Shown here piece by piece: positions 16,447 through 44,328 of a stretch of 64,000 bases of DNA. Each line of letters opens with the position of its first letter. Within the stretch, counting starts at the first letter, position 1. The stretch comes from Candidatus Harrisonbacteria bacterium CG10_big_fil_rev_8_21_14_0_10_40_38 (GTDB taxonomy: Bacteria > Patescibacteriota > Minisyncoccia > UBA6257 > 1-14-0-10-40-38). A model generated the notes under the pieces. The model had not been told where the DNA came from and ran no database searches. It saw only the letters and a list, made by a program, of their open reading frames with translations. Where the stretch lies: positions 2,285 to 66,284 of the forward strand of contig PFAZ01000002.1 of NCBI GenBank assembly GCA_002773535.1. The letters run 5' to 3'. Position numbers and translations under genes: made by a program.

Positions 16447-18201
16447 TTATTCCACCACTCCCCTGATTCTCCTCAGTCCCGCTCCAACAGATTCTTCTTT
16501 TTTTATCCTAAAATGACCAATTTCCCCTGTATGGGTTACATGCGGTCCTCCGCAAAACTCTTTTGAAAACGCGCTATCTATATCTTTTCCAACAAAATAA
16601 ACATTAACCGGATCAGGATATTTTTCTTTAAAGAAATAAAGAGCACCCGTTTTTTCCGCTTCCTCTTTTGGCATAATAATTTTCTGCACTGGTAAATCCT
16701 CCGCTATTACATCATTTACCAGTTTTTCAACCTTAGAAATTTCCTCCGGTGTAAGTTTTCTAGGGAAAGTAAAATCAAACCTTGTTCTATCAACAGTTAT
16801 ATCAGATCCCGCCTGACCGACTTCAGACCCCAAAACCTTTCTAAGCGCCGCCTGCAAAAGATGTGTGGCAGTGTGAAGTCTCAAAACTTTTTTAAGCTCC
16901 TCTTCATTGCCCGCTTTCAACTCACCCGTGTCGAGAATGAGCCCATGCCCGCCAAACTTTTTCTCTTGCCCAGCCCGAGAAATTTCTTGGTGTTTTTCAA
17001 ATTCCTTATCAAAATCTTCTCTGGTTAAATTTTTTGCTTTTTCAGAACCAACTTCTTTTATAACCTCATAAGGCAATCCATAAGTAGAAAAAAGAGAAAA
17101 AGCAGACACAGCATCAATGTTTTGAAGTTTTTCAAGCTCCTTTATTCCCTTGTCTAATGTTTCCAAAAACTTTTTTCGCTCTTCAGAGAAAACCTCTAAA
17201 ATCAATTCTTTTGAAAGATTGTCATAAAAATCTCCATATTCACGCACAACGCCACCAAGAAGAATATTTGAATCAAATTTATATTTTTCAGAATACATAA
17301 CAAACCTCCTCACAAGTCGTCTCAAAACATAGCCAGCATCTTTATTTGACGGCCTAACTCCATCACTTATCAAAAAAACAATACCTCGCGCATGATCAGC
17401 GGCAATCCTCCTAATCTTTATAGGCATCTCCAACGAGATCTCACTTAAAAAAGAAGCGAACAAATCCGTATCAAAAATAGTCGGAACGTCTTGAGAAACC
17501 ATTACAAGCCGCTCCAGCCCCATTCCGGTATCAACTCCCTGAATTTTGAGAGGAGTTAGTTTCTTTAATGAATCACAGTAAAACTGATTAAAAACAATAT
17601 TCCAAACCTCCACAGGAGGTTTGCCCTGAGCCTGTCGAAGAGCACCATTCACATAAATTTCTGTTGTTGGCCCGCATGGACCCTCACTGCCGGTCGGACC
17701 CCAGAAATTATCAACGCCCTCTCGCCTCACATCCACCTCTGGAGCAATTTTTTTCCAAAAGTTGTATGATTCCTCATCAAACGGAACTCCGGCCCTCCAG
17801 TCGTCGTGAGAAACCTTTTTGGGGTCAAAAACTGTAACATAGTCAATTTCAAGACCCATCACCTTAGTAATAAACTCATACCCATATCTAATCGCCTCCT
17901 CCTTGAAATATCCCCCAAAAGAAAAATTTCCAAACATCTCAAAAAAAGTAAGGTGACTTTCATCTCCTACTTCATCAATATCAGAAGTTCTAAAACTCTT
18001 CTGAATCGAAGTCGTATTAAGACTTCCAAAATCTTTTTCTGCGTCCAACTCCCCCGTAAAATACTTTTTAAATTGTTGCATTCCGGCAGTCGTAAGAAGC
18101 ACCGATGGATCATCCGGCACAAGAGAACTAGAGGTAACAACCTTGTGCCCCCTCTCCTCAAAAAAACTTAAAAATTTCTGCCTGATTTCTCGGGAATTCA
18201 T
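16447..18201 (-). CDS. alaS: Alanyl-tRNA synthetase, short form (584 aa; catalytic and editing domains, no C-Ala domain)
   Basis: MNSREIRQKFLSFFEERGH...FTNAGM-like core; the editing HxxxH motif HTATHLLQAAL and a CxxxH motif near the C-terminus. Confidence 0.9.
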   Translation of the reverse strand: MNSREIRQKFLSFFEERGHKVVTSSSLVPDDPSVLLTTAGMQQFKKYFTGELDAEKDFGSLNTTSIQKSFRTSDIDEVGDESHLTFFEMFGNFSFGGYFKEEAIRYGYEFITKVMGLEIDYVTVFDPKKVSHDDWRAGVPFDEESYNFWKKIAPEVDVRREGVDNFWGPTGSEGPCGPTTEIYVNGALRQAQGKPPVEVWNIVFNQFYCDSLKKLTPLKIQGVDTGMGLERLVMVSQDVPTIFDTDLFASFLSEISLEMPIKIRRIAADHARGIVFLISDGVRPSNKDAGYVLRRLVRRFVMYSEKYKFDSNILLGGVVREYGDFYDNLSKELILEVFSEERKKFLETLDKGIKELEKLQNIDAVSAFSLFSTYGLPYEVIKEVGSEKAKNLTREDFDKEFEKHQEISRAGQEKKFGGHGLILDTGELKAGNEEELKKVLRLHTATHLLQAALRKVLGSEVGQAGSDITVDRTRFDFTFPRKLTPEEISKVEKLVNDVIAEDLPVQKIIMPKEEAEKTGALYFFKEKYPDPVNVYFVGKDIDSAFSKEFCGGPHVTHTGEIGHFRIKKEESVGAGLRRIRGVVE

Positions 18202-31956: not shown

Positions 31957-34900
31957 TTATTTTTCTTCTTTCGAAGAAGGCATTTTAACAAGTTCGACGT
32001 TGAAGGCTAAAGCCTTTAATTCGTTAATAAGAACATTAAAGGAAGCCGGAATATTTGGATTTTTGATAGGCTCACCACGAATTATCGATTCATAAGCAGA
32101 AGAACGACCAAGAATGTCATCCGATTTTGCAGTGAGCATTTCTTGTAGTGTATGAGCAGCGCCATACCCTTCAAGAGCCCACACCTCCATTTCTCCAAAC
32201 CTCTGACCGCCAAACTGAGCTTTTCCGCCAAGAGGCTGCTGAGTGATCAAAGAGTAAGGGCCAATAGATCTCATGTGCAACTTGTCTTCAACCAAGTGGT
32301 TAAGTTTCATTATGTACATGACGCCAACAGTTACAGCTTGATCAAAAGGTCTACCACTTCTCCCATCATAAAGAGTAACCTTGCCACCTTCTGGAATACC
32401 CGCTTTTTTAAGCTCTTCTTTTATCTGTGCATCAGTTGCTCCAGCAAGAGAGGTAGTCGCAGCTCTATAACCAAGTTTCTTTGCCGCCCATCCCAAATGA
32501 ACCTCCAATATCTGTCCAAGGTTCATACGCGATGCGACACCAAGAGGGTTTAAGACAACATCAACAGGAGTTCCATCTTCAAGATAAGGCATATCCTCAA
32601 CTGGTCTTATTTGTGAAATAACACCCTTATTTCCGTGACGACCTGAAAGTTTGTCCCCTGCTCTTATTTTTCTAAGCTGCGCAACCTGAACCTGAATACG
32701 CGCAATAACACCCGGCTCAAGTTTATCAACATTATCACGTGAAAATATTTTTACTCCGACAATACGGCCATACTTACCATGAGGCAAAGTAAGAGAAGTA
32801 TCCTTTACATCTCTTGCTTGTTCTCCAAATATTGCGCGTAGCAACCTTTCTTCAGAAGTAAGCTCACTCTCACCTTTTGGAGAAATCTTTCCTACAAGAA
32901 TATCGCCAGCTCTTACCTCCGCGCCGATCCTAACTATTCCCTCTTCATCCAAATTACGAAGTTTTTCCTCAGAGACATTAGGAATATCAGGTGTTGTCAT
33001 TTCCGGACCAAGTTTTGTATCTCTTACATCACAATTGTAGTCCTCAATATGAATTGATGTAAATAAATCATTTTGAGCAACTCTTTCCGAAAGAACGATA
33101 GCATCTTCAAAGTTCGCGCCACCCCAAGACAAAAACGCAACCACAAGATTCTGTCCAAGAGCTAAAACTCCATTGTCGATAGAAGGCCCATCTGCAAGAA
33201 CATCGCCCTTCTTAACTTTTTGTCCCTTCTTTACAAGCGGACGCTGCGAAATACACGTAAATTGGTTCGATCTCTTAAATTTAATAAGTGGATATTTTTT
33301 TGTTCCCGACTTAGAACCTTTAAATACGATATGAGTTCCATCAACTTCCGAAATAGTCCCGTCCTCCGGGGCAGTAATGAGATAACCTGAGTCTCGCGCA
33401 ATAAGCTCTTCCATACCCGTTCCGACATACGGCGCTTGAGCGCGAATAGATACAACAGCCTGACGTTGCATGTTTGATCCCATCGCCGCACGACTTGCGT
33501 CATTATGTTCAAGGAAAGGAATGAGTGATGTAGCAATACTAATCGGCTGTCTCGGTGCAACATCAATCAATGTAAGTTCAGCTCTCGTGCATGATCCAGG
33601 TTTTCCATTTATCCTCGCTTCTACAACATCGCTTAGAATATTGCCGTCCGTATCGAATAAAACTCCCGCATGCGCAATTTTATGATGCTCCTCTTCATGT
33701 GCATCAAGCCAGATTAGATCACCTGTTATCTTTCCATTTTTTACCGTTACATATGGAGTCTCAAGAAAACCAAAATCATTCACACGTGAAAAGTTTGAAA
33801 AATAGTTGATCAAACCAATATTCGATCCTTCAGGTGTTTGAATAGGGCAAATTCTTCCATAGTGAGACTGGTGCACGTCACGAACTTCAAAACTGGCTCT
33901 CTGCCTATCAAGTCCCCCAGGACCAAGAACAGAAACACGCCTCTTGTGTTCAACTTCCGCAAGAGGATTAACTTGATCCATGAACTGCGAAAGAGGAGAC
34001 GACGCAAAAAATTCTCTTACAACTGAAATTAACGGCTTTGCATTTACAAGCTGCAAAGGCGTAAGGGTATCAATGCCCATCGTAGACATTCTGTCCTGAA
34101 TAATCCTTCTCATTCTCGCAAGACCAAGTCTAAGACGAGACTGAATGAGTTCGCCTACAGCTCTTACTCTCCTGTTCCCAAGATGATCGATATCGTCAGG
34201 TTCAGCCGAAGGATCATTATTCAACTGAATAATCTCACGAATAAACCCGATTAAATCCTGCAATTGCAAAAGTCTACCATCTACATCCTTAGGAAGAGTT
34301 GAGCTAAGTCGCTGATTTACTTTAAACCTTCCAACATTCGATAAGTCATATCTATCAATCCTATGGAACATAGAATCTATAAGAGTTCTTATGTTATCAA
34401 TTGTAGCTAAATCACCCGGTCTCACACGTTTGTAGATTTCTAAATAGGATTCATCAAGGCTCTTTGCTGCATCCTTCTTGAGAGTCGCCGCAATATAAGA
34501 AACCGAACCATTATCAATGTCGCCAAAATCTTTTTCCGACGAAGAATCCTCCCATCCAAAAACTCGCAAAAGATCCGTTACAGCAACCTTTCTCCTTCTA
34601 TCAATTTTTACCCCAATAAATCCATCTGGATCTGTCTCAAATTCGAGCCAAACACCCCTGCTTGGTATTATTTTCGCTCCAAACAATTTCTTACCTCTCC
34701 ATGTATTAGCAGTAAAATAAACACCGGCACTTCTTATAAGCTGAGAAATAACAACACGCTCAACACCGTTTATAATAAAAGTTCCACGATCCGTCATTAC
34801 CGGAAAATCACCCAAATAAACCTCCTGGTCTTTCTTTTCGTTTGTTTTATGGTTAGTTAACTGAACCTTAACCCTTAATGGAGCTTCATAGGTAAGTTCT

Positions 34901-35133
34901 TTTATTTTTGACTGTTCTTCGTCATACTTCGGCTCATCAAAATAATAATCAAGAAATTCAAGCTCAATTTCCTTTCCAGTATAATCTTTTATAGGCGAAA
35001 TCTCCTCAAATAATTCTTTGAGGCCTGTAGTCTTAAACCATTCATATGATTCAATTTGTACTCTCGCAAGATGGTCTTGATCGGTGAAAGCTCCAGGATG
35101 CGAAGAGAATAATACTGAGGGCAATTTCTCCAT
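31957..35133 (-). CDS. rpoB: DNA-directed RNA polymerase beta subunit
   Basis: 1058 aa; conserved blocks throughout the beta subunit. Confidence 0.95.
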   Translation of the reverse strand: MEKLPSVLFSSHPGAFTDQDHLARVQIESYEWFKTTGLKELFEEISPIKDYTGKEIELEFLDYYFDEPKYDEEQSKIKELTYEAPLRVKVQLTNHKTNEKKDQEVYLGDFPVMTDRGTFIINGVERVVISQLIRSAGVYFTANTWRGKKLFGAKIIPSRGVWLEFETDPDGFIGVKIDRRRKVAVTDLLRVFGWEDSSSEKDFGDIDNGSVSYIAATLKKDAAKSLDESYLEIYKRVRPGDLATIDNIRTLIDSMFHRIDRYDLSNVGRFKVNQRLSSTLPKDVDGRLLQLQDLIGFIREIIQLNNDPSAEPDDIDHLGNRRVRAVGELIQSRLRLGLARMRRIIQDRMSTMGIDTLTPLQLVNAKPLISVVREFFASSPLSQFMDQVNPLAEVEHKRRVSVLGPGGLDRQRASFEVRDVHQSHYGRICPIQTPEGSNIGLINYFSNFSRVNDFGFLETPYVTVKNGKITGDLIWLDAHEEEHHKIAHAGVLFDTDGNILSDVVEARINGKPGSCTRAELTLIDVAPRQPISIATSLIPFLEHNDASRAAMGSNMQRQAVVSIRAQAPYVGTGMEELIARDSGYLITAPEDGTISEVDGTHIVFKGSKSGTKKYPLIKFKRSNQFTCISQRPLVKKGQKVKKGDVLADGPSIDNGVLALGQNLVVAFLSWGGANFEDAIVLSERVAQNDLFTSIHIEDYNCDVRDTKLGPEMTTPDIPNVSEEKLRNLDEEGIVRIGAEVRAGDILVGKISPKGESELTSEERLLRAIFGEQARDVKDTSLTLPHGKYGRIVGVKIFSRDNVDKLEPGVIARIQVQVAQLRKIRAGDKLSGRHGNKGVISQIRPVEDMPYLEDGTPVDVVLNPLGVASRMNLGQILEVHLGWAAKKLGYRAATTSLAGATDAQIKEELKKAGIPEGGKVTLYDGRSGRPFDQAVTVGVMYIMKLNHLVEDKLHMRSIGPYSLITQQPLGGKAQFGGQRFGEMEVWALEGYGAAHTLQEMLTAKSDDILGRSSAYESIIRGEPIKNPNIPASFNVLINELKALAFNVELVKMPSSKEEK

Positions 35134-35204
35134 GAGAGGTTATAAAGAGAAAAACGAGGCAGACAAAAAGGCAAGCCGCCACGTTGACGATTAGTTTAAA
35201 TTAC

Positions 35205-35227
35205 ATTATACCGTACCACACTATCAA
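35205..35227 (-). promoter_or_regulatory. Candidate promoter upstream of rpoB
   Basis: The minus strand reads TTGATA ... TATAAT, but the spacer is only 11 nt (optimal is 17). Confidence 0.25.
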
Positions 35228-35230
35228 TAA

Positions 35231-36229
35231 TTAACGCAAGTATCGAGCTTTATTCCGATTATGCTCAGCAAGAGTAGCCGCAAAAATCGTATTCTTTGTC
35301 TCCGGATCTGAAAGATAATACCAATACTTCGTATTCTGTGGGTTACGCGCTGCAAGAATAGCATCAAGGCCAGGATTTGCAATAGGAGCGGGCGGGAGAC
35401 CCTGATAACGATAAGTATTATAAGGTGATTGTATCAGAAAATCGTCTGGTGTCAAGCGGGGGCAGTTTTCAAAAACCCCATTACATTTTGCATAAATAAC
35501 AGTTGCATCTATCTGCAAACCCATACCGACATCGAGTCTTTTTTTAATAATTCCCGCAACTATTCTCCTATCTTCCGAAAATGGCACTTCCCTCTCTATT
35601 AAAGAAGCTAAAATAAGATCGTTATACCAATCTTTATCCTCTTCCGATGTTTCAAAAGAAAAAGCGGATCCAGCTTTATATTGAAAATTATCCAAAAGCT
35701 TTTTCACTATGTCCTCTGTTGTAGAATCCGTAGAAAACCGATACGTATCAGGAAACAAAAACCCTTCAAGAGTTTTAACTCGTTCCAAAAATGGATATTT
35801 CTGTTTTAATGCCTCCACGTCGTAAGAAGCAAGTGAACCGGCATCAATAAGACCAAGCGAGGCAAATTGAGAATCAACTTCCTTTAACGTTTTACCTTCG
35901 TGTATTAAAACCTCAATATCAGCAGGTCCATCTACCAACAATCTCACAATTTCAGACATGTTGAGAGAAGGCGAAACTATGTATCGACCAGGTTTCAATT
36001 GAGATGAAGCTCCTCTAAAAAAAGTATAAAACTTAAAAGCATAAGAAGATCTTATGAGATTTTCCTCCTCAAGAATCTGCCCTATTTTCCCTACACCATC
36101 ACCGGGCAATATTTTTATATCTCTTGCAGAGCCGATAGAAATTGGGCTCAAAATATAAGTCGTAAACGCCAACATAAAAAAAAGAAATATAAGCGTAAAC
36201 GCAATTAGAAGAGAACGAATGCTAAGCAT
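35231..36229 (-). CDS. mltG: Endolytic murein transglycosylase MltG (YceG-like)
   Basis: ...ASLIEREV...GLQIDATVIY...YNTYRYQGLPPAPIANPG... Confidence 0.85.
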   Translation of the reverse strand: MLSIRSLLIAFTLIFLFFMLAFTTYILSPISIGSARDIKILPGDGVGKIGQILEEENLIRSSYAFKFYTFFRGASSQLKPGRYIVSPSLNMSEIVRLLVDGPADIEVLIHEGKTLKEVDSQFASLGLIDAGSLASYDVEALKQKYPFLERVKTLEGFLFPDTYRFSTDSTTEDIVKKLLDNFQYKAGSAFSFETSEEDKDWYNDLILASLIEREVPFSEDRRIVAGIIKKRLDVGMGLQIDATVIYAKCNGVFENCPRLTPDDFLIQSPYNTYRYQGLPPAPIANPGLDAILAARNPQNTKYWYYLSDPETKNTIFAATLAEHNRNKARYLR

Positions 36230-36234
36230 AAAAT

Positions 36235-37329
36235 TTAAAATCTAGGACGCGCCGGAATAGCTTGAATAATACCAACGAGGAATGCCTTGGTCAATAAACT
36301 TGAGCCGCCATAACTTAAAAATGGAAATGTAACACCAACAACTGGTAAAAGTCCGAGATTCGAACCGACATTAAACAAAAACTCAAGTAAGAAAAGTATA
36401 ACGGCCCCAAGGCAAAGAAATCTAGAAAAATTATCTTCAGCAGAAATCCCTATCTTAATAATACGCAAAAGTACAAAAAGAAAAACCAGAACCAACACAA
36501 ATCCACCCAAAAAACCCCACTCCTCAACAAAAGCCGCAAAAATAAAATCCGTTGCTGGCTCTGTAAGAAACCGAAGTTGTGTTTGTGTCCCCTGACCATA
36601 ACCTTTTCCAAAAATACCAGAAGACCCAATGGCGATCTTCGACTGAATCACGCTATAGTTAATTCCCGAAGGATCATAAGATGGCTGAAGAAACCCAATT
36701 ATTCTTTCTCTCTGATAAGGTTTTAAAAGAAACATCCAACTTGCACCTACAAAAACTGCAAATAACAAAATCCCAATCATAAGATGTCTCCACCTAATAC
36801 CGGAGACCAATAAATAACCGATCCATATCCCGACAAAAATAAGCGCAGACCCCCAGTCAGGCTGAATAAATACAATAATCGCAGGAACAAAAAAATAAAC
36901 AAAACTTGCAGCCAAATTTCCGATATGCGCTATACCAACATGTCTTCTGGCAAAAAAAACCGATAGCATAATCACTAAAGAAACCTTCGCAAGTTCAGAT
37001 GGCTGAAAAGCAAACGAACCAAAAGTTAACCAGCTTCTCGTCTGTCTTACTGTCGGCGCAAAAAAAAGAGTTAAAAATAAAAGCAAAACAGTAACAACGT
37101 AAAATCCTAGAATAATCCACTTATAATTAAGGGCTATTTGCCAATCTATTGAAGAAGATAAAAAAAGTATCAAAAAACCTACCAAAAACCAGATAAGTTG
37201 CTGGTAAAATAAAGATTTTGAAATACTCGAAATCTCAATAAGGCTACAAGATGCAAGCGCCGCAACGCCCGACATGAGTAGCCAATCTAAACGTTTTAAA
37301 CGCAAAAAAGTAAAAAACATAAAAAACAC
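36235..37329 (-). CDS. rodA: SEDS-family peptidoglycan glycosyltransferase (RodA/FtsW)
   Basis: 364 aa, ~10 TM; ...TEPATDFIFAAFVEEWGF... Confidence 0.85.
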   Translation of the reverse strand: MFFMFFTFLRLKRLDWLLMSGVAALASCSLIEISSISKSLFYQQLIWFLVGFLILFLSSSIDWQIALNYKWIILGFYVVTVLLLFLTLFFAPTVRQTRSWLTFGSFAFQPSELAKVSLVIMLSVFFARRHVGIAHIGNLAASFVYFFVPAIIVFIQPDWGSALIFVGIWIGYLLVSGIRWRHLMIGILLFAVFVGASWMFLLKPYQRERIIGFLQPSYDPSGINYSVIQSKIAIGSSGIFGKGYGQGTQTQLRFLTEPATDFIFAAFVEEWGFLGGFVLVLVFLFVLLRIIKIGISAEDNFSRFLCLGAVILFLLEFLFNVGSNLGLLPVVGVTFPFLSYGGSSLLTKAFLVGIIQAIPARPRF

Positions 37330-37336
37330 TATTCTA

Positions 37337-38104
37337 TTACTTTACCGAATCAGCATAGACTCTGACGGATGCAGTGGAAATAGCACTAACGTCAGAAATA
37401 GGAACTATAGCAGTAAAAGCTCTCTCCTCAAAAGAAGAAATTCTCTCAATAAAAGTACTAGACAATCCAATAAGCACATCATTCCTGTCGTAAACAGCAA
37501 CATATATATCCGCGCGAGCCAGAGAAACTGCTTCACGATTCACAAAAAGACCAGTGATAGAAATCTTATTCCCATCAAAGATAGAATCTTGTTCAATTCT
37601 CGCAGAACGAATACTCGTGTCAGGATTTGAAAATTCACTAATAGGTCTCCAAGTCTGATTTTCAATAATCGCTTTTGCATACGAAACACCGCTTATAGAA
37701 ATCGGCACTCCAGCCTCAACGACAGTTTTTATATCTCCCGGATAAATAAATGAGTCTCTAACCACATCGCTCACCACCGTATCGGTATTATCAAAAAAAG
37801 TAACATGATATCTAAAATTTGAAGCGCCGAAAGACGTATTTGGATTTTTAAAACCAAGAAGTGCAGATGTAAAATTTCCGGACCCCACGAGCTTAACAGG
37901 CAACGCTTCAATAGGCTTAAGATTTGCTATCTCGCACGAAACACATGGCCCCCCGCAATCAACCTGCTCTTCCCCTTGATTACGCCTATTATCAAAACAA
38001 GTTCCAAATGAAAAAAAATATCCGTAAATATAATAAATAATTGCGGCAAAAATCGACAAATATAAAACTCCGTAAATAAATTGTTTAATTCCCCTTCTTG
38101 GCAT
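37337..38104 (-). CDS. Hypothetical membrane-anchored protein with an extracytoplasmic 4-Cys motif
   Basis: 255 aa; N-terminal TM, then CFDN...VDCGGPCVSC. Confidence 0.4.
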   Translation of the reverse strand: MPRRGIKQFIYGVLYLSIFAAIIYYIYGYFFSFGTCFDNRRNQGEEQVDCGGPCVSCEIANLKPIEALPVKLVGSGNFTSALLGFKNPNTSFGASNFRYHVTFFDNTDTVVSDVVRDSFIYPGDIKTVVEAGVPISISGVSYAKAIIENQTWRPISEFSNPDTSIRSARIEQDSIFDGNKISITGLFVNREAVSLARADIYVAVYDRNDVLIGLSSTFIERISSFEERAFTAIVPISDVSAISTASVRVYADSVK

Positions 38105-38171: not shown

Positions 38172-38290
38172 ATATGCCGGCATATCCTACTTTCCCGCCC
38201 CGAAAACGGAGAAGTATCATCAGATCCAATACGCTTTCACGACTCTGTTCGGAATGGGAAGAGGTGGGGCACGTACGGATAAAATACCGG
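38172..38290 (-). rRNA. rrf: 5S rRNA
   Basis: The reverse complement aligns to the bacterial 5S (…CUGUUCGGAAUGGGAAGAGGUGGG…); helix I is closed by UGCCGG/CCGGCA. The ends are approximate. Confidence 0.7.
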
Positions 38291-38633
38291 CAAATCAAAA
38301 CATCGGTGAGGTACAGCATTCTTACGCTTTCCGTTATGAAGAACGTTGTGGTTATTAAATCAAAACGACTTTTAGTACTCCTTGGCTAAACACGTTACCG
38401 TGCGTACACCTAGAGCCTATCAACGTGGTAATCTTCCACGAGTCGCCACGCACAGAGCACGCAATGATTGATTAAAATCATACACTGCGTGCTCTGCACG
38501 CTAACACCTTATCTTGGGATGGGCTTCGTGCTTAGATGCTTTCAGCGCTTATCCCTTCCGAACATAGCTACTCGGCAATTCACCTGGTGGCAAAGCCGAT
38601 AGACCAGCGGTTCGTTCAGCCCGGTCCTCTCGT

Positions 38634-39417
38634 CACGTAATCCCCTATTTCTAGGAGCGTAGACTATATCTTCACCCTTCTCGCATCGCGAGATTAGGGT
38701 GTCAGCATGTTACCTGCATAAACCTGTCTGAAATTCAGACTTTCCAGTTTACACAAGTCCAATTCGTCAGTTAACGAATTAAGTCGTTACGGGGTCAAAC
38801 CTAAAGTTTTCAATATTTCCCCCTCGGTTCTCTTCTTGCGAGTTTTATAATTCTCATTTTGAACCTTCAAAATATTTTTAGCCAACATCCTAAGCTCTTT
38901 TTCGGAACGAGATCGTTTTTTAAGTATACGAGCTGACTCGATAAGAAGTTTTGCTTGAATTTCTTTAAATTTAATAAATGGGAGTAATTGAACAAGTATT
39001 TTTTCAACCTGCTCGTGTCCATTTATCCGCAATTCAGAAATTCCATCATTTCTTCTCGAAATATACCCAATACCAAACACATCTCTAATCCAAAATAGAG
39101 GCTTTTCATGACGGGAATCTTGATAAAAACAAATCGTTAGCATAAACCTATGCCTGGATTTATTCCCATCTTTGCGCTTCTTGAGTTGAAACATCAAACT
39201 TCCATCACCATCAAGAAAACCCGCAATATAAGCTAAATAAACTTTAAGTCGACTTCCCACGGTATTATCTTAAATATCTTATGGTCCTCAAGTAATATAC
39301 CATATCTAGCAGACCGTTACCAGATAGTTTTTATCCATAGACCAAAAAATATATGAAGACTTCACCGTTATAAGCTGAATTGTCAATCCGCCTTTCGACG
39401 GAAAGTAGCAATTTCTT
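38634..39417 (-). mobile_element. Group I intron 1 in the 23S, inserted between the equivalents of E. coli U2656 and A2657 (sarcin-ricin loop)
   Basis: The exon junction is CCUAGU | ... G | ACGAGAGGACC; the 5' exon ends in U and the intron ends in G, as group I introns require. It contains a LAGLIDADG ORF. Confidence 0.7.
38787..39260 (-). CDS. Single-motif LAGLIDADG homing endonuclease (encoded in intron 1)
   Basis: 157 aa; LAYIAGFLDGDGS motif near the N-terminus. Confidence 0.85.
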   Translation of the reverse strand: MGSRLKVYLAYIAGFLDGDGSLMFQLKKRKDGNKSRHRFMLTICFYQDSRHEKPLFWIRDVFGIGYISRRNDGISELRINGHEQVEKILVQLLPFIKFKEIQAKLLIESARILKKRSRSEKELRMLAKNILKVQNENYKTRKKRTEGEILKTLGLTP

Positions 39418-39479
39418 ACTAGGGCCGACTTCCCTCAAGTGTTCACGCCTGCAGCAGATAGAGACCAACCTGTCTCACG

Positions 39480-40208
39480 CAATAAATTATTATTTACCCA
39501 CCATTACTGATGGTTTGGACTATACCACCACCCCGCACATCGCGGGGGACCGACGTATTAACCGATCTTTAAAGATCGATTCCGTCCCAAATTTATGGAA
39601 CAAGTCTCTAAGGGGTCAATGTACGACGTTTTCGTTTTTTCGAATAATTAAGATCTCTGAAATTATCAACTAACTCTGCCAAGACAAGAAAATCAGATTC
39701 CGTCTTAACTTCATCTTTTTTAGTTAAAATAAGTTTCATAAGCTCAACTTGCTTCTTCTTAAGAAGAACATATGGCTCTATTGCTTCCAAAAGTGTTAAT
39801 ACATCCTGTCTTTTACCGATTATATACTCCAAAATTTCATCTTTTCTTTCTCGTATATATCCCAAACCAACAAGATTGCACACTTTCTCAAAATTTTCCC
39901 GACATTTTGATGATTGAAAAAATACTATGTAAGGCGAAATTTGAAACCCAAATTTATATGATGAATTTGGTTTCATTTGAACATAGATACTTCCATCACC
40001 AACGAGAAAACCAGCAATATATGCCTTTTGATTTGACGAAAAAACCATACACGACTTCCCTCGGTATTATCCTAACATATGACAGGTTAATCAATAAATT
40101 GTTAGGACTTCACCGATATGAGTCAGTTTTTTCCATAGAAAATTGCTTTTCTAGGCCGCCGTGTTCGATTGTCTTTTGCCTTTTTAGGCAAAAAGGGTTC
40201 ATTTTTTG
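39480..40208 (-). mobile_element. Group I intron 2 in the 23S, at the I-CreI / L2593 homing site
   Basis: Exon context ...GGGUUCAAACCGU | intron | CGUGAGACAGGUUGG matches the I-CreI target CAAAACGTC^GTGAGACAGTTTGG; the 5' exon ends in U and the intron ends in G. Confidence 0.8.
39608..40048 (-). CDS. Single-motif LAGLIDADG homing endonuclease (I-CreI-like, encoded in intron 2)
   Basis: 146 aa; AYIAGFLVGDGS motif. Confidence 0.85.
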   Translation of the reverse strand: MVFSSNQKAYIAGFLVGDGSIYVQMKPNSSYKFGFQISPYIVFFQSSKCRENFEKVCNLVGLGYIRERKDEILEYIIGKRQDVLTLLEAIEPYVLLKKKQVELMKLILTKKDEVKTESDFLVLAELVDNFRDLNYSKKRKRRTLTP

Positions 40209-41111
40209 ACGGTTTGAACCCAGCTCGCGTGCCCTTTTAAGTGGCGAACAGCCACACGCTTGGGAGCTTCTCCACCCCCGCGCTAGGGCGAGCCGACATC
40301 GAGGTGCCGAGCTTCGTCGTCGCTGTGGACGCTCGGACGAAACCAGCCTGTTATCCCCGGAGTAACTTTTAGCCGATGTCTTCGGCCTTTCTATAGAGAG
40401 CCGTCGGGTCACTAAGTTCTGCTTTCGCACCTGCTCGACTTGTAGGTCTCGCAGTTAAGCTGGCTTGTGCCTTTACACGTCAAGCGCGATTTCCATCCGC
40501 GCTAAGCCAACCTTAATAAACTCCTCCGCTACCTTTTAGGAGGAAAACGCCCCATTTAAACTGCCCGGCAGGCACTGTCCCTCATGGTTTTTGCCCATGG
40601 GGTTAGACGTTAAAATACAAAAGATGGGTGTTTCATTGGCGACTCCACGTCACCCGAAAGCGACGCTTCAAAGTCTCCCCACTACGCTACGCAAGTGCAT
40701 CCTAAAGCCAATACCAACCTACAGTAAAGCTTCCGGGGTCTTTTCGTCTTGCTGCAGGTACCCCGCGTCTTCACGGGGATCGCATTTTCACCGAGCTCTT
40801 CGCTGAGACAGTTCCCCAGTCGTTACGCCATTCGTGCGCTTCGGAACTTACCCGAAAAGGAATTGCGCTACCTTTGGACGGTTATAGTTACCGCCGACAT
40901 TGACGAGGGCTTCGGGCAGTGGGCAGAACGTATTGCTACATAACACCCCCACCGTTAACCTTCTCGCATCGGTCAGGCGTCACCCCCTATACATAGACTT
41001 ACGTCTTCGCAGGGAGCTGTGTTTTTGATAAACAGTCGCCAGGGATACTTTCGCTGCGGCCTCATCGAAACTGGAAGAAGGAGCGGAACCTCTGTTCCGC
41101 AAAGTTTTTTT

Positions 41112-41190
41112 TGGTAGAGGCGGAAGGACTTGAACCTCCAACCTTCTCGCCTTTAGCGAGACGCTCTAGTCTTTTTTGAGCTACGCCCCT
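41112..41190 (-). ncRNA. tRNA-like element A inside the 23S insertion (anticodon-loop CUAAAGG, encoded CCA)
   Basis: AGGGGCG-TA-GCTC-AAAAAAGACTA-GAGC-G-TCTCG-CTAAAGG-CGAGA-AGGTT-GGAGG-TTCAAGT-CCTTC-CGCCTCT-A-CCA. All four stems pair; the D-loop lacks G18G19; position 34 is A. Confidence 0.5.
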
Positions 41191-41216
41191 ACATAAAAAC
41201 TACAAAATGAAGTAAA

Positions 41217-41291
41217 TGGAGCTGACTGGAGGACTTGAACCTCCACACATGGGGGTTATATCCCAATGCGCTACCATTGAGCTAAGCCAGC
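41217..41291 (-). ncRNA. tRNA-like element B inside the 23S insertion (anticodon-loop AUAUAAC, encoded CCA)
   Basis: GCTGGCT-TA-GCTC-AATGGTA-GCGC-A-TTGGG-ATATAAC-CCCCA-TGTGT-GGAGG-TTCAAGT-CCTCC-AGTCAGC-T-CCA. The T-arm is identical to element A. Confidence 0.5.
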
Positions 41292-42424
41292 TCATTTTTC
41301 CTTCTTCCAGTCCCGATAAGGCAGGCCTTATTGCTAACGTACGGCCGCTTTTTTGCCGAGTTCCTTAGCGAAGAATCACTCGTTCCCCTTGGGCTTCTCG
41401 CCCTATCCACCAGTGTCGGTTTACGGTACGATGCCGAACATACTAACCTTAGAAGCTTTTCTCGGAAGGCTCTTCAGTTTAATTGATTAGGTAAGAACCT
41501 AATCTTTCCTCAATGCGCGAAATTTGCCATTAAAGGCAGACAGCGGGATTTTCCTCACTGCCAAGTCTTAACACAAAGGACGCCAAACCATTAAGACGAT
41601 AAACCTTTTGTCCTCCGTCCCTCCATCGAATATGTCCGGCGGGCAGGAATATTAACCTGCTTCCCATCGCGTTCAGCTTTCGCCATCCGCTTAGGATCGC
41701 CTAACCCGTGGATGATTGCCATTGCCACGGAAACCTTGGATTTTCGGGGTGCCCGTTTCTCACGGACAGTGTGGTTACTCATACCAACATTCTCACCTCC
41801 CAGCGTTCCAGTTGCCCTCGCGGGTCAACCTTCAACACACTAGGAGCGCTCTCCTACCGCTCATGAATTCCACCAAAGAGACATAAATCTCCTCAGTGGA
41901 ATTCACGAACCCGCACCTTCGGTGGCGTGCTTAAGCCCCGATACATTTTCGGCGCCACCAACCGTCGAATAGTGAGTTGTTACACACTCTTTAAAGGGTG
42001 GCTACCTCTAAGCCAACCTCCTATCTGTCACTGGTTGATGACTACCTTTAACACTGAGCACGCACTTAGGGACCTTAGATAGCGGTCTGGGCTGTTCCCC
42101 TCGCGAACATGGAGCTTAGCCCCCACGTTCTAACTACTATTCATCCGTTATGGTATTCGGAGTTTGATCGAACAGTCGAGCTTGCGCCCATTACTGCTCA
42201 TCCAGTGCTCTACCCCCATATCGTTTTTAAATAGCGCTAGCCCTAAAGCTATTTCGGAGAGAACCAGCTATTACCAGGCTCGATTAGCTTTTCACTTCTT
42301 ACCCCAGATCATCCGAGGGTGTTGCACAACCCACCGGTTCGGACCTCCCCCCACTGTTACGTGGGGTTCATCCTGTCCAGGGCAAGCTCGCACTGGCTTC
42401 GGGTCTTACACATGCTGCTTACTA

Positions 42425-42477
42425 CCTATGACTTACGACGTACGGCAAATAAATTGCGCGTAAATCGTAAGTCAAAG
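42425..42477 (-). other. Extended hairpin at the 23S helix-25 position (IVS-like expansion)
   Basis: A 10-bp inverted repeat TGACTTACGA / TCGTAAGTCA enclosing ~28 nt, at the equivalent of E. coli ~nt 545, a known IVS hotspot. Confidence 0.35.
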
Positions 42478-42669
42478 TAGGAATCGCCCTTTTAAGACTC
42501 GCTTTCGCTACGCCTTCTCCCGCTAAGCGGGATTAAACATTGCAACATATATAAACTCGTTGGTTCATTCTTCAATAGGCACCGCGTTACCCGATCCCGC
42601 ATTGCTGCGGGACCCGAGCTTCGCGTCTTTGTAAGCGTATGGTTTCAGATTCTATTTCATCCCCCTTCC

Positions 42670-42712
<43 letters not shown>

Positions 42713-43354
42713 ATCACGAAATGTATTTAGCCTTACCGGATAGTACCGGCAGATTCCTTCAAGGTTGTTTTGCCTCGAAGTACTCAAGAACGAAGAAATT
42801 GGTCGCTACAGCTTTCGCGTACAGGGCTGTCACCTTCTCTGGCCTCGCATTCCAACGAGTTCCACTAGCTGAGCAATTTGTAACCAATCATAGCGACAAG
42901 CGACATAAGACAAACAACAAGAAAATACTTGTCGCAGTTCACATGTCGCATATCGCTAAATTTTCCTCGCCTTACAACCCCCATCAATCTTTCGATAAAT
43001 AGGTTTGGGCTCTTCCCGTTTGGCTCGCCGCTACTCAGGGAATAAACGTTTGTTCTCTTTTCCTCTGCTTACTGAGATGTTTCACTTCAGCAGGTGTACC
43101 TTCTACATTGCTGTAGAATCATGTCGGTTTACGACACGGGGTTTCCCCATTCGGAAATCTTCGGATCAAAGGTCGCTAAGCACCTCCCCGAAGCTTATCG
43201 CAGCCACGCCACGTCCTTCATCGCCATTTCGTGTCAAGGCATCCACCATACGCCCTTACGAGATCAATAACCACATTGTTCTTCATAACGGGAAACGTAT
43301 AAATGCTTTTTTGTACCTGTTACTAATTTGATTCAGATATTCATTTTTAAAAGC

Positions 43355-43372
43355 GCAATCATCCAAATCACA
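43355..43372 (-). promoter_or_regulatory. boxA-like antitermination element in the 23S leader
   Basis: The minus strand reads GCGCUUUUAAAAAU; compare E. coli boxA UGCUCUUUAACAAU. It is preceded by the hairpin CCGCUCCGAAGCGG plus a U-run at 43431-43452 (boxB-like or an attenuator). Confidence 0.3.
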
Positions 43373-43534
43373 TTCGTCTTCGCTTCCGGCCATAAACAGC
43401 AAATTATTGCGGAAAATGGTCGAAAACCAAGAGATTAAAAAAACCGCTTCGGAGCGGCTACACTCAAGGTGCAAAAAAACCAGGAATTAGCCACACCGTT
43501 GAAATTGAAAATATATATTCATCACGTACAAATA

Positions 43535-43562
43535 AGTATACGCACCCCAAAACTACTGTCAA
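43535..43562 (-). promoter_or_regulatory. Candidate sigma-70 promoter for the 23S-5S transcript
   Basis: The minus strand reads TTGACA - 16 nt - TATACT, ~230 nt upstream of the 23S 5' end. Confidence 0.45.
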
Positions 43563-43594
43563 GCGGTAATACCTATACCTTTATATATAAGAAA

Positions 43595-43614
43595 ACCGCC
43601 CTGTATAATCAGGG
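43595..43614 (-). terminator. Terminator hairpin after the upstream membrane-protein gene
   Basis: CGCCCTG-TATAAT-CAGGGCG, a perfect 7-bp inverted repeat ~30 nt past the stop of 43642..44328; followed on the minus strand by GTTTTCTT. Confidence 0.45.
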
Positions 43615-43641
43615 CGATTTCTTTAAAAAAACCAGTGTTTT

Positions 43642-44328
43642 TTATTTGTGATGAGTCATCTCATCTCTTATCTTAGAAAGCCACTGATGAGCATGATCTT
43701 TCCCTCCAAGACCGAAAGCCAATCCCCCAGCCAAAGCAAGCATAGCGACAAGTCCGGTGATAAGAGTATTAATCACCTGAACCGCAACGCCAAGCTGAAC
43801 CAATGCGGCTAAAAATCCAAATACCACAATACCCCACCATGCGATCATGGATAGAGATTTTGCAGCATGAAGTTTTGCACCCATTACAGAAGCGCGCACT
43901 AAACCTTTTACAAAGTTTGCAGCAACCAATGCAACAAGAAGAATGAGAGATGCAACAATTACCCTAGGAATATAATGCAAGACTTCTCGAAGGAAAGCTG
44001 ACAAATCTGAAAGGCCTAAAACGTTTGAAGCCGCAAGGAATGTAAGAACTAAGAAAAACCAGTAAACCAGTCTTCCCAAAAACACTCCCGCATTAAGCCT
44101 CATATTGCTTCTTGCCAGAAAACCATCAAAGCCAGTCTGCCTAAGAAGAGAATCTACTTTAAGGTAATAAACTAGTCTTTCCACCAATCGCTCCAAGCCA
44201 GATGCTACAATGAGTCCAATTATAAGAAGTATAATTGCGCCAATAAGATCAGGAAGAAAACCAGCTACTTGTAAAAGTAATTCCTGAAAAGAACCGACGA
44301 ATGCGTCAATCCATGTTTGAACTGTCAT
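43642..44328 (-). CDS. Membrane protein with repeated conserved-TM-helix modules (MscS-associated TM_helix-like)
   Basis: 228 aa; repeated helices such as LLQVAGFLPDLIGAIILLIIGLIVA. The family assignment is tentative. Confidence 0.4.
   Translation of the reverse strand: MTVQTWIDAFVGSFQELLLQVAGFLPDLIGAIILLIIGLIVASGLERLVERLVYYLKVDSLLRQTGFDGFLARSNMRLNAGVFLGRLVYWFFLVLTFLAASNVLGLSDLSAFLREVLHYIPRVIVASLILLVALVAANFVKGLVRASVMGAKLHAAKSLSMIAWWGIVVFGFLAALVQLGVAVQVINTLITGLVAMLALAGGLAFGLGGKDHAHQWLSKIRDEMTHHK

Follow-up and report, generated by a model that had tools for sequence, protein, structure and literature searches.

A stem-closed insertion of 239 nt, holding two tRNA-like units that each end in a genomically encoded CCA, occupies the tip of helix 63 (H63) in the 23S rRNA gene of the 64,000-nucleotide stretch of contig PFAZ01000002.1 analysed here. 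This whole stretch is called the window below. Its proteins carry the NCBI name Candidatus Harrisonbacteria bacterium CG10_big_fil_rev_8_21_14_0_10_40_38, a Parcubacteria-group organism of the candidate phyla radiation (CPR). A tRNA-like unit in the same frame was found in a second carrier, at another 23S site. We tentatively favour, with a confidence somewhat short of even, the reading that the insertion is a stem-closed cassette of the intervening sequence (IVS) type, which lies in dispensable terminal 23S loops of some Parcubacteria, carries one or two non-decoding tRNA shapes as cargo and would be processed by RNase III and tRNA enzymes.

By local Rfam alignment, the insertion takes the place of the 3-nt apical loop of a hairpin at large-subunit (LSU) model positions 1751-1777. 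The hairpin is H63, because it is positioned directly after helix 62 and before ...CGACUGUUUAUCAAAAACACAG. The H63 placement proposed in an earlier note on this DNA is upheld, and both units lie inside the LSU rRNA match. The note had the insert bracketed by a perfect 13-bp complement. These arms are real (41299-41311 and 41070-41082), but the stem was underestimated, since the pair table gives a closing helix of 24 uninterrupted pairs, including 3 G-U, between 41299-41322 and 41059-41082. The insert was put at 224 nt, and the interior between the arms is 216 nt; the interval end at 41062 falls in the outer part of the closing stem. The IVS-like architecture itself, a helix-tip insertion shut by 24 continuous pairs, holds. 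The minimum free energy (MFE) of the insertion is -122 kcal/mol, compared with -81 +/- 5 for shuffles (z = -8.2). The insertion is not an assembly artefact, because an independent contig from another sample (JGI contig 3300025850|Ga0210050_1001380, here L089) reads through it with 100% identity over 4552 nt.

All parts of the insertion are read on the minus strand. Along the RNA they follow as 5′ arm, 7-nt leader, unit B with CCA, 26-nt spacer, unit A with CCA, 11-nt trailer, AGAG hairpin and 3′ arm. The 5′ strand of the closing helix, which extends H63 and is seen in the MFE fold, occupies 41299..41322 and includes a conserved 12-nt core, CUGGAAGAAGGA, at 41299-41310; the same core occurs in two further carriers, L012 and L102/L103. 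The leader of unit B, AAAAUGA (41292..41298), pairs in the pair table and fold with the discriminator, C74 and A76 of B and with its trailer, leaving C75 bulged. Unit B spans 41217..41291, of which 72 nt precede the encoded CCA at 41217-41219. An AU-rich spacer (…UUUUUAUGU, 41191..41216) forms both the trailer of B and the leader of A, and the latter pairs with the discriminator, the CCA and the A-run after unit A. Unit A, at 41112..41190, consists of 76 nt and the encoded CCA at 41112-41114, and is followed by its trailer, AAAAAAACUUU (41101..41111). A 7-bp hairpin with an AGAG loop, GCGGAAC-AGAG-GUUCCGC (41083..41100), directly abuts the 3′ strand of the closing helix at 41059..41082, whose conserved core UCCUUCUUCCAG lies at 41071-41082.

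Unit A matches the Rfam tRNA model at 41115..41190 with 54.2 bits, and unit B at 41220..41291 with 47.8 bits. A covariance-model scan had been named in the earlier note as a check on the tRNA likeness, and both scores are above the gathering score of 29. The window's three ordinary tRNAs score 52-63 bits in the same model. ARAGORN calls unit A Phe(AAA) and unit B Tyr(AUA). The earlier description of two complete cloverleaves is borne out by both programs as regards tRNA likeness, but not entirely as regards completeness, for unit B has a U-C mismatch in the D stem and in the anticodon stem. The anticodon loops, CUAAAGG in A and AUAUAAC in B, the shared T-arm and the lack of G18-G19 in the D-loop of unit A are as described there. 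Unit A also has a G3:U70 pair, discriminator A and G37 after A36, and unit B has discriminator U (U73) and a 5-nt variable loop. The CCA is encoded in both units and absent from the window's three ordinary tRNAs. With the unit of the second carrier included, it is encoded in 3 of 3 units, whereas the 7 ordinary tRNAs compared from the window and from its closest relatives all lack it. The A at position 34, already pointed out as an oddity, does not occur in any of the 30 other tRNAs of the loci fetched.

In a permissive scan of all 4227 Rfam families, tRNA was the sole matching model, with no match to YrlA or Y RNA, tmRNA or mascRNA; Intron_gpI gave no match within 41050-41330 even at E<=1. 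Two other readings of the insertion were set aside. The purine-rich arm and an AUG open a 31-aa open reading frame (ORF) over unit B, and a protein-coding reading is rejected because this ORF is not conserved, its counterparts being 1 codon long at unit A and 8 codons long in L102. No promoter-like site was predicted, which makes an internal promoter or a split transcription unit unlikely. The AGAG hairpin at 41083-41100 scored terminator-like on both strands, and its antisense side is then followed by a T-run. If it worked as a terminator here, the 3′ part of the 23S gene would be lost. The hairpin may be left over from a tRNA-operon end from which the cassette arose.

Among proteins on record, the nearest relatives of the window's RpoB share 76-81% identity with it. 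The gene order of mechanosensitive channel (MS-channel), 23S, 5S, X (a 255-aa protein), rodA, mltG, rpoB and rpoC is kept in relatives to ~70% RpoB identity, so that their 23S genes could be reached through RpoB. A comparison of related 23S genes, also proposed in the earlier note, showed that the tRNA-like cassette recurs at another 23S site. In L102 (RpoB 76%), and in L103, a second assembly of the same carrier, a tRNA match of 44.1 bits lies within the 23S gene and is called Ile(GAU) by ARAGORN. This unit sits in a 484-nt insertion at LSU model position ~2620, the site of the window's first LAGLIDADG insertion. The insertion (L102:4522-5005; L103:450-591) is a group-I-like intron that bears the framed cassette instead of a homing-endonuclease gene. 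When four homologous introns are aligned (window, L102, L097 and L101), the L102 cassette fills a variable peripheral loop between ...CCGAGGGAAG and CCCCKUAGAGACUU... In the window the LAGLIDADG ORF occupies this loop; L097 has ~28 nt there, and L101 has ~100 nt of AT-rich filler. The L097 and L101 introns at LSU ~2620 are ORF-less versions with short or AT-rich loops.

The frame of the L102 cassette repeats that of the window part by part. Its arms, CUGAAAGAAGGA/UCCUUCUUUCAG, lie within a 19-bp perfect helix and differ from those of the window by one compensatory change, G:C to A:U. Between them are an A-rich leader, the unit with its encoded CCA, a U-rich trailer and an AGAG hairpin that abuts the 3′ arm. 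The L102 hairpin, CGAAACG-AGAG-CGUUUCG, has the same position, length and loop as that of the window, and its stem differs at every position. Across the carriers the common 12-bp arm core reads CUGRAAGAAGGA/UCCUUCUUYCAG and lies inside a perfect helix of 19-25 bp. The leaders end in AUGA, AUGU and GUGU (consensus RUGN), and all three of these ends pair with the discriminator, C74 and A76 and leave C75 as a bulge. The leader-trailer pairing runs over 6-8 pairs in the three units and covaries at -1:73 (A-U, U-A, U-G). Judged from these alignments, the conserved entity is the framed cassette and not H63 itself, because it is present in two unrelated dispensable 23S loops, the H63 tip and an intron loop.

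At H63 itself, the segment between GGAACUCGGCAAA and CUGUUUAYC was measured in 23S genes fetched via RpoB. It is 100 nt in L097, where a 6-bp stem carries a GCAA loop, 104 nt in L009, and 120 nt in L094 and in L102, the last three with a short tip. In the others it is extended, to 256 nt in L104 by a different insertion with its own long closing stem, to 271 nt in L101 by an AT-rich insertion, to 277 nt in L012, and to 346 nt in the window with its two tRNA-like units. The segment thus ranges from 100 to 346 nt, which marks the tip of H63 as a hot spot for insertions in this clade. L012 (Ca. Liptonbacteria, RpoB 69%) has the window's arms, CUGGAAGAAGGA...UCCUUCUUCCAG, in H63 with a compensated outer stem; its cargo of ~145 nt differs from that of the window and gave no tRNA signal. 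The H63 insertions of L104 and L012 both have a perfect closing stem of 19-25 bp and a hairpin beside the 3′ arm, without tRNA-like cargo. The H63-tip insertions of these relatives measure 150-190 nt and lie at L104:5155-5345, L101:2520-2700 and L012:2165-2360.

Comparison of A, B and the L102 unit separates what is kept from what is lost. Over the three units, 96.8% of the stem positions are paired, and 11 of the 21 pairs have changed on both sides, against at most 3 in slid controls. U8, A14, A15:U48, A21 and a canonical T-loop are present in all three, and the T-stem is almost invariant (GRAGG/CCUYC). The discriminators are A, U and G in A, B and the L102 unit, and the L102 anticodon loop is either the 5-nt UGAUC or a 7-nt loop with C37. 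The cloverleaf, the nucleotides of the tertiary contacts and the CCA are conserved; the anticodon loops and the discriminators are not. The identity elements point in the same direction. A long variable arm is typical of bacterial tRNA-Tyr, and unit B, the presumed Tyr, has none, its identity elements disagreeing with its anticodon. G3:U70 and A73 are alanine identity determinants, and unit A, the presumed Phe, joins them to the anticodon AAA. To our knowledge, A34 with AAA or AUA anticodons is essentially unused in bacteria. The comparative data speak strongly against decoding tRNAs, because neither the anticodon loops nor the discriminators are kept across the three units.

Classical 23S IVSs are excised by RNase III without religation. 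In the reading that we tentatively favour, the cassette would be transcribed within the pre-23S rRNA, and RNase III would cut the long helix as in these IVSs, so that the cassette would be removed. The mature 23S rRNA would then consist of two pieces connected at the base of H63 alone; the L102 cassette would be removed along with the intron. RNase P may then cut the extended acceptor helices, with the 3′ side trimmed to the encoded CCA, and CCA-ended tRNA mimics of ~75 nt would be released. Such mimics may serve the stability of the excised RNA, the titration or recruitment of tRNA-binding enzymes, or the propagation of the cassette. The patchy presence of the H63 extension among relatives supports the IVS type, since classical IVSs are distributed in this way. 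CPR genomes generally retain rnc (PMC12641178), and E. coli tolerates H63 insertions (PMC2441807). In the tRNA-like element of MALAT1, an acceptor stem extended by leader-trailer pairing promotes RNase P processing (PMC8457004), and the YrlA RNAs are stem-closed tRNA mimics that are handled by tRNA enzymes (PMC4201824). A bolder form of the reading holds that the CPR rRNA unit makes a new class of CCA-ended non-decoding mimics from a mobile cassette, that excision by RNase III and RNase P punctuates the 23S rRNA, and that the core and the AGAG hairpin are recognition sites for a dedicated factor or for cassette spread; we regard this form as doubtful.

Several points weigh against the reading of an excised cassette. 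Three carriers were found (window, L102/L103 and L012), and the cargo is tRNA-like in two of them. We infer RNase III cleavage, RNase P cleavage and the free 75-nt species from the architecture, and an RNase III signature motif was not found in the 64-kb window. The pairing of the CCA with the leader could instead keep the 3′ end from ever being released. The three units share 50-52 of 75 positions, no more than they share with unrelated tRNAs. Three independent captures of tRNAs, instead of a long-lasting constraint, could thus account for the covariation count. Nevertheless, the shared frame, the T-stem and the CCA argue for constraint. Searches in genome and metagenome contig collections for a T-loop at a fixed distance from conserved 23S sequence, a pattern verified on the window, gave 0 matches, as did a scan of metagenome contigs for the 3′ arm with its flank. 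Both negatives are weak, because the scans were capped and also missed the known carrier L089, whose sequence matches the patterns.

Alternatively, the cassette may be a functionless passenger, which we consider unlikely. It would be a selfish or accidental insertion, either resembling a miniature inverted-repeat transposable element (MITE) or derived from a captured tRNA-operon end with its terminator, in which the tRNA shape is inherited from source tRNA genes and not yet decayed, and it would be tolerated because its loops are dispensable and because it leaves with the stem or the intron. In favour, the arms form inverted repeats whose 12-bp core is conserved between two unrelated sites, and tested as a MITE the cassette has terminal inverted repeats, the core lying within repeats of 19-24 bp in three carriers. 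The cargo varies by carrier, being tRNA-like in the window and L102 and unrelated in L012. The AGAG hairpin followed by a pyrimidine tract scores terminator-like, as fits the 3′ end of a tRNA operon, and unit B has two stem mismatches. However, no target-site duplication was found, and the flanks are complementary rather than direct repeats. The window holds 1 copy, and an arm search found no other in the 64 kb or in ~1.4 Mb of the relatives' non-rRNA DNA, nor any outside 23S in the fetched loci. The CCA, the leader-trailer helix, the T-stem and the tertiary nucleotides are kept while the units differ at about one third of positions, with covariation at -1:73, and the hairpin stem is fully compensated between carriers around an unchanged loop.

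The origin of the units bears on this alternative. The earlier suggestion of a tandem duplication is unsupported, because A and B, with 50 of 75 positions in common, are no more alike than either is to Trp or Ile tRNAs; the T-arm alone is alike. An isoacceptor assignment was attempted and is ambiguous, as Trp, Ile and Ala tRNAs all agree with the units at 50-56 of ~76 positions. In its anticodon arm and variable loop, unit A, which also has G3:U70 and A73, resembles the tRNA-Ala(UGC) of a relative, a likeness that would suit a passenger. This likeness makes an origin from an Ile-Ala spacer tRNA pair an attractive, though unproven, possibility. As an observation apart, tRNA-Ala(UGC) sits immediately upstream of 23S in L101, instead of the conserved MS-channel order. 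In searches for outside sources, arm scans of viral contigs gave 35 matches, none with the full 5′ core or a tRNA, which are attributed to chance. A blastn search of the insert against phages returned a 44-nt generic T-arm as the sole match, and the three units gave no blastn match in E. coli genomes.

A further possibility, and quite an improbable one in our view, is that of a retained expansion segment. The insertion would be a branched surface extension of H63 whose tRNA-shaped arms remain covalently attached to the ribosome, and in which the CCA and the pairing of leader and trailer keep RNase Z and RNase P from cutting. H63 takes insertions in E. coli and corresponds to the site of expansion segment 27 (ES27; ES27L in eukaryotes), and tRNA-like tags engineered into 23S helices are visible on ribosomes (PMC2441807). 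The pairing of the leader with discriminator, C74, A76 and trailer, seen in all three units, leaves the primary fold without a free 3′ end. L012 and L104 have other branched, well-folded H63 insertions with a 3′ hairpin by the closing stem. Against this, a perfect duplex of 19-25 bp is a typical substrate of RNase III, whose gene is generally kept in CPR (PMC12641178). The L102 cassette lies in an intron loop and is not expected to stay in the ribosome; a function common to the cassettes can therefore not lie in ribosomal display. Close relatives also exist without any H63 extension.

That the units are genuine nested tRNA genes, expressed like spacer tRNAs and decoding UUU and UAU with an unmodified A34, is very improbable: their covariance scores are in the range of the genome's real tRNAs, the CCA is encoded, and UUU and UAU should be common codons as expected from composition in a genome of 39% G+C, but the unused A34 (0 of 30 other tRNAs in the loci), the missing long arm of unit B, the alanine determinants and G37 beside the anticodon AAA of unit A, and the different defective loop and discriminator of the unit in the homologous L102 cassette all argue otherwise.

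The host gene is itself unusually long. The whole-window Rfam match (LSU_rRNA_bacteria, 2043 bits) stops at 40139, which had been taken as the end of the 23S gene; local alignment extends the 3′ end to ~38365, and the true extent is ~4.9 kb (38365..43269, minus strand). Besides the H63 insertion, the gene contains two LAGLIDADG-bearing group-I-like insertions near its 3′ end. The first, 733 nt at 39475-40207 after LSU model position ~2620, has its ORF at 39608-40048, and the second, 789 nt at ~38623-39411 after model position ~2688, has its ORF at 38787-39260; both ORFs are single-domain. A weak group I match at 38641-38785 belongs to the second of these and not to the H63 cassette, and a further insert of 46 nt lies near model position 2820. 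rRNA finders will cut 23S genes of this type short. Metagenome contigs of this organism mostly end within the 23S gene (L001-L008). Spurious ORFs inside the rRNA, used as a route to other assemblies, had no entry on record.

Around the gene, an Rfam scan places the 5S gene at 38174-38292 and finds no 16S gene in the 64-kb window. The 16S and 23S genes are unlinked in the window, where the region upstream of 23S (43270-44328) carries a small MS-channel-like gene at a distance of 373 nt. The conserved-order block 3′ of 23S and 5S occupies 31957-38104. The alanyl-tRNA synthetase (16447-18201, minus strand) is short, at 584 aa; it has the catalytic and tRNA-recognition domains and SAD, with no Pfam domain beyond SAD. 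It is of interest because unit A bears the G3:U70 and A73 alanine determinants. In a close relative (RpoB 80%), a reverse transcriptase gene stands beside bAvd a few kb downstream of rpoC (L092:17603-19027; L093:16689-18111), and the pair looks like a diversity-generating retroelement.

Among known systems, the classical 23S IVSs of Salmonella, Campylobacter, Leptospira and Coxiella are similar in that the tip of a surface helix is replaced, the stem is long and near-perfect, presence is patchy among relatives and a fragmented but functional 23S rRNA is expected. They differ in site, which is H25 or H45 for the classical IVSs and H63 in the window. They also differ in cargo, an unstructured loop or an S23p-type ORF in the classical IVSs against tRNA-like cloverleaves with CCA and an AGAG hairpin here, and in that the cassette frame is also found inside an intron (L102). 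In the mitochondrion of Tetrahymena pyriformis, the LSU rRNA consists of two parts separated by a tRNA gene (Heinonen et al. 1987, as cited in PMC2996981). There too, a tRNA shape lies between LSU parts and would provide sites for RNase P and 3′-end processing that separate them; the Tetrahymena case is organellar, with a decoding tRNA-Leu and rearranged pieces, whereas the window's is bacterial, collinear and non-decoding, with a closing stem.

Outside rRNA, MALAT1/mascRNA and NEAT1/menRNA share with the cassette a tRNA-like fold in a long non-coding transcript and the pairing of an A-rich leader with the 3′ trailer around a single bulge (PMC8457004). Their element is an RNase P signal that yields a small tRNA-like by-product, which for the cassette is a prediction; mascRNA is eukaryotic and nuclear, has a reduced anticodon arm and receives its CCA after cleavage, whereas the CCA of the cassette is encoded (PMC8457004). 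YrlA similarly joins a long closing stem to a non-decoding tRNA-like domain, which is recognised by RNase P and by CCA-addition and modification enzymes (PMC4201824). YrlA, however, is free-standing beside rsr and its stem binds Ro60, whereas the cassette lies within an rRNA gene and has a complete anticodon arm (PMC4201824).

A survey of CPR rRNA insertions found that 82% of CPR 23S genes carry them (Tsurumaki et al. 2024, PMC11270868). The survey reports LAGLIDADG introns near positions 2593-2657, as in the window, and many short insertions, not introns and without ORFs, whose nature is unknown and some of which its authors suspect to be IVSs of the RNase III type. It mentions tRNA nowhere (0 occurrences) and describes no conserved framed cassette. 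The earlier note knew of no precedent, and none was found in this survey or in the other literature searched. None of the known parallels (IVS, organellar, mascRNA, YrlA) combines a bacterial 23S rRNA, complete non-decoding cloverleaves with CCA and a frame found at two sites. The cassette seems to represent a kind of rRNA insertion that had not been described before.

A large share of the CPR 23S insertions are unclassified. Our study gives one class of these a defined anatomy, consisting of arms, tRNA-like cargo with CCA and an AGAG hairpin, in a cassette that moves between unrelated loops of the rRNA transcription unit. In genomes of this kind, tRNA finders will list Phe(AAA), Tyr(AUA) and Ile(GAU) genes that are spurious. 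Should processing take place as proposed, the units would act as tRNA-shaped processing signals within an rRNA, the first such case in bacteria, and would supply tRNA mimics from a new source in organisms whose RNA-processing machinery is minimal. They would then be to bacteria what tRNA punctuation is to mitochondria, and would likewise parallel MALAT1/mascRNA.

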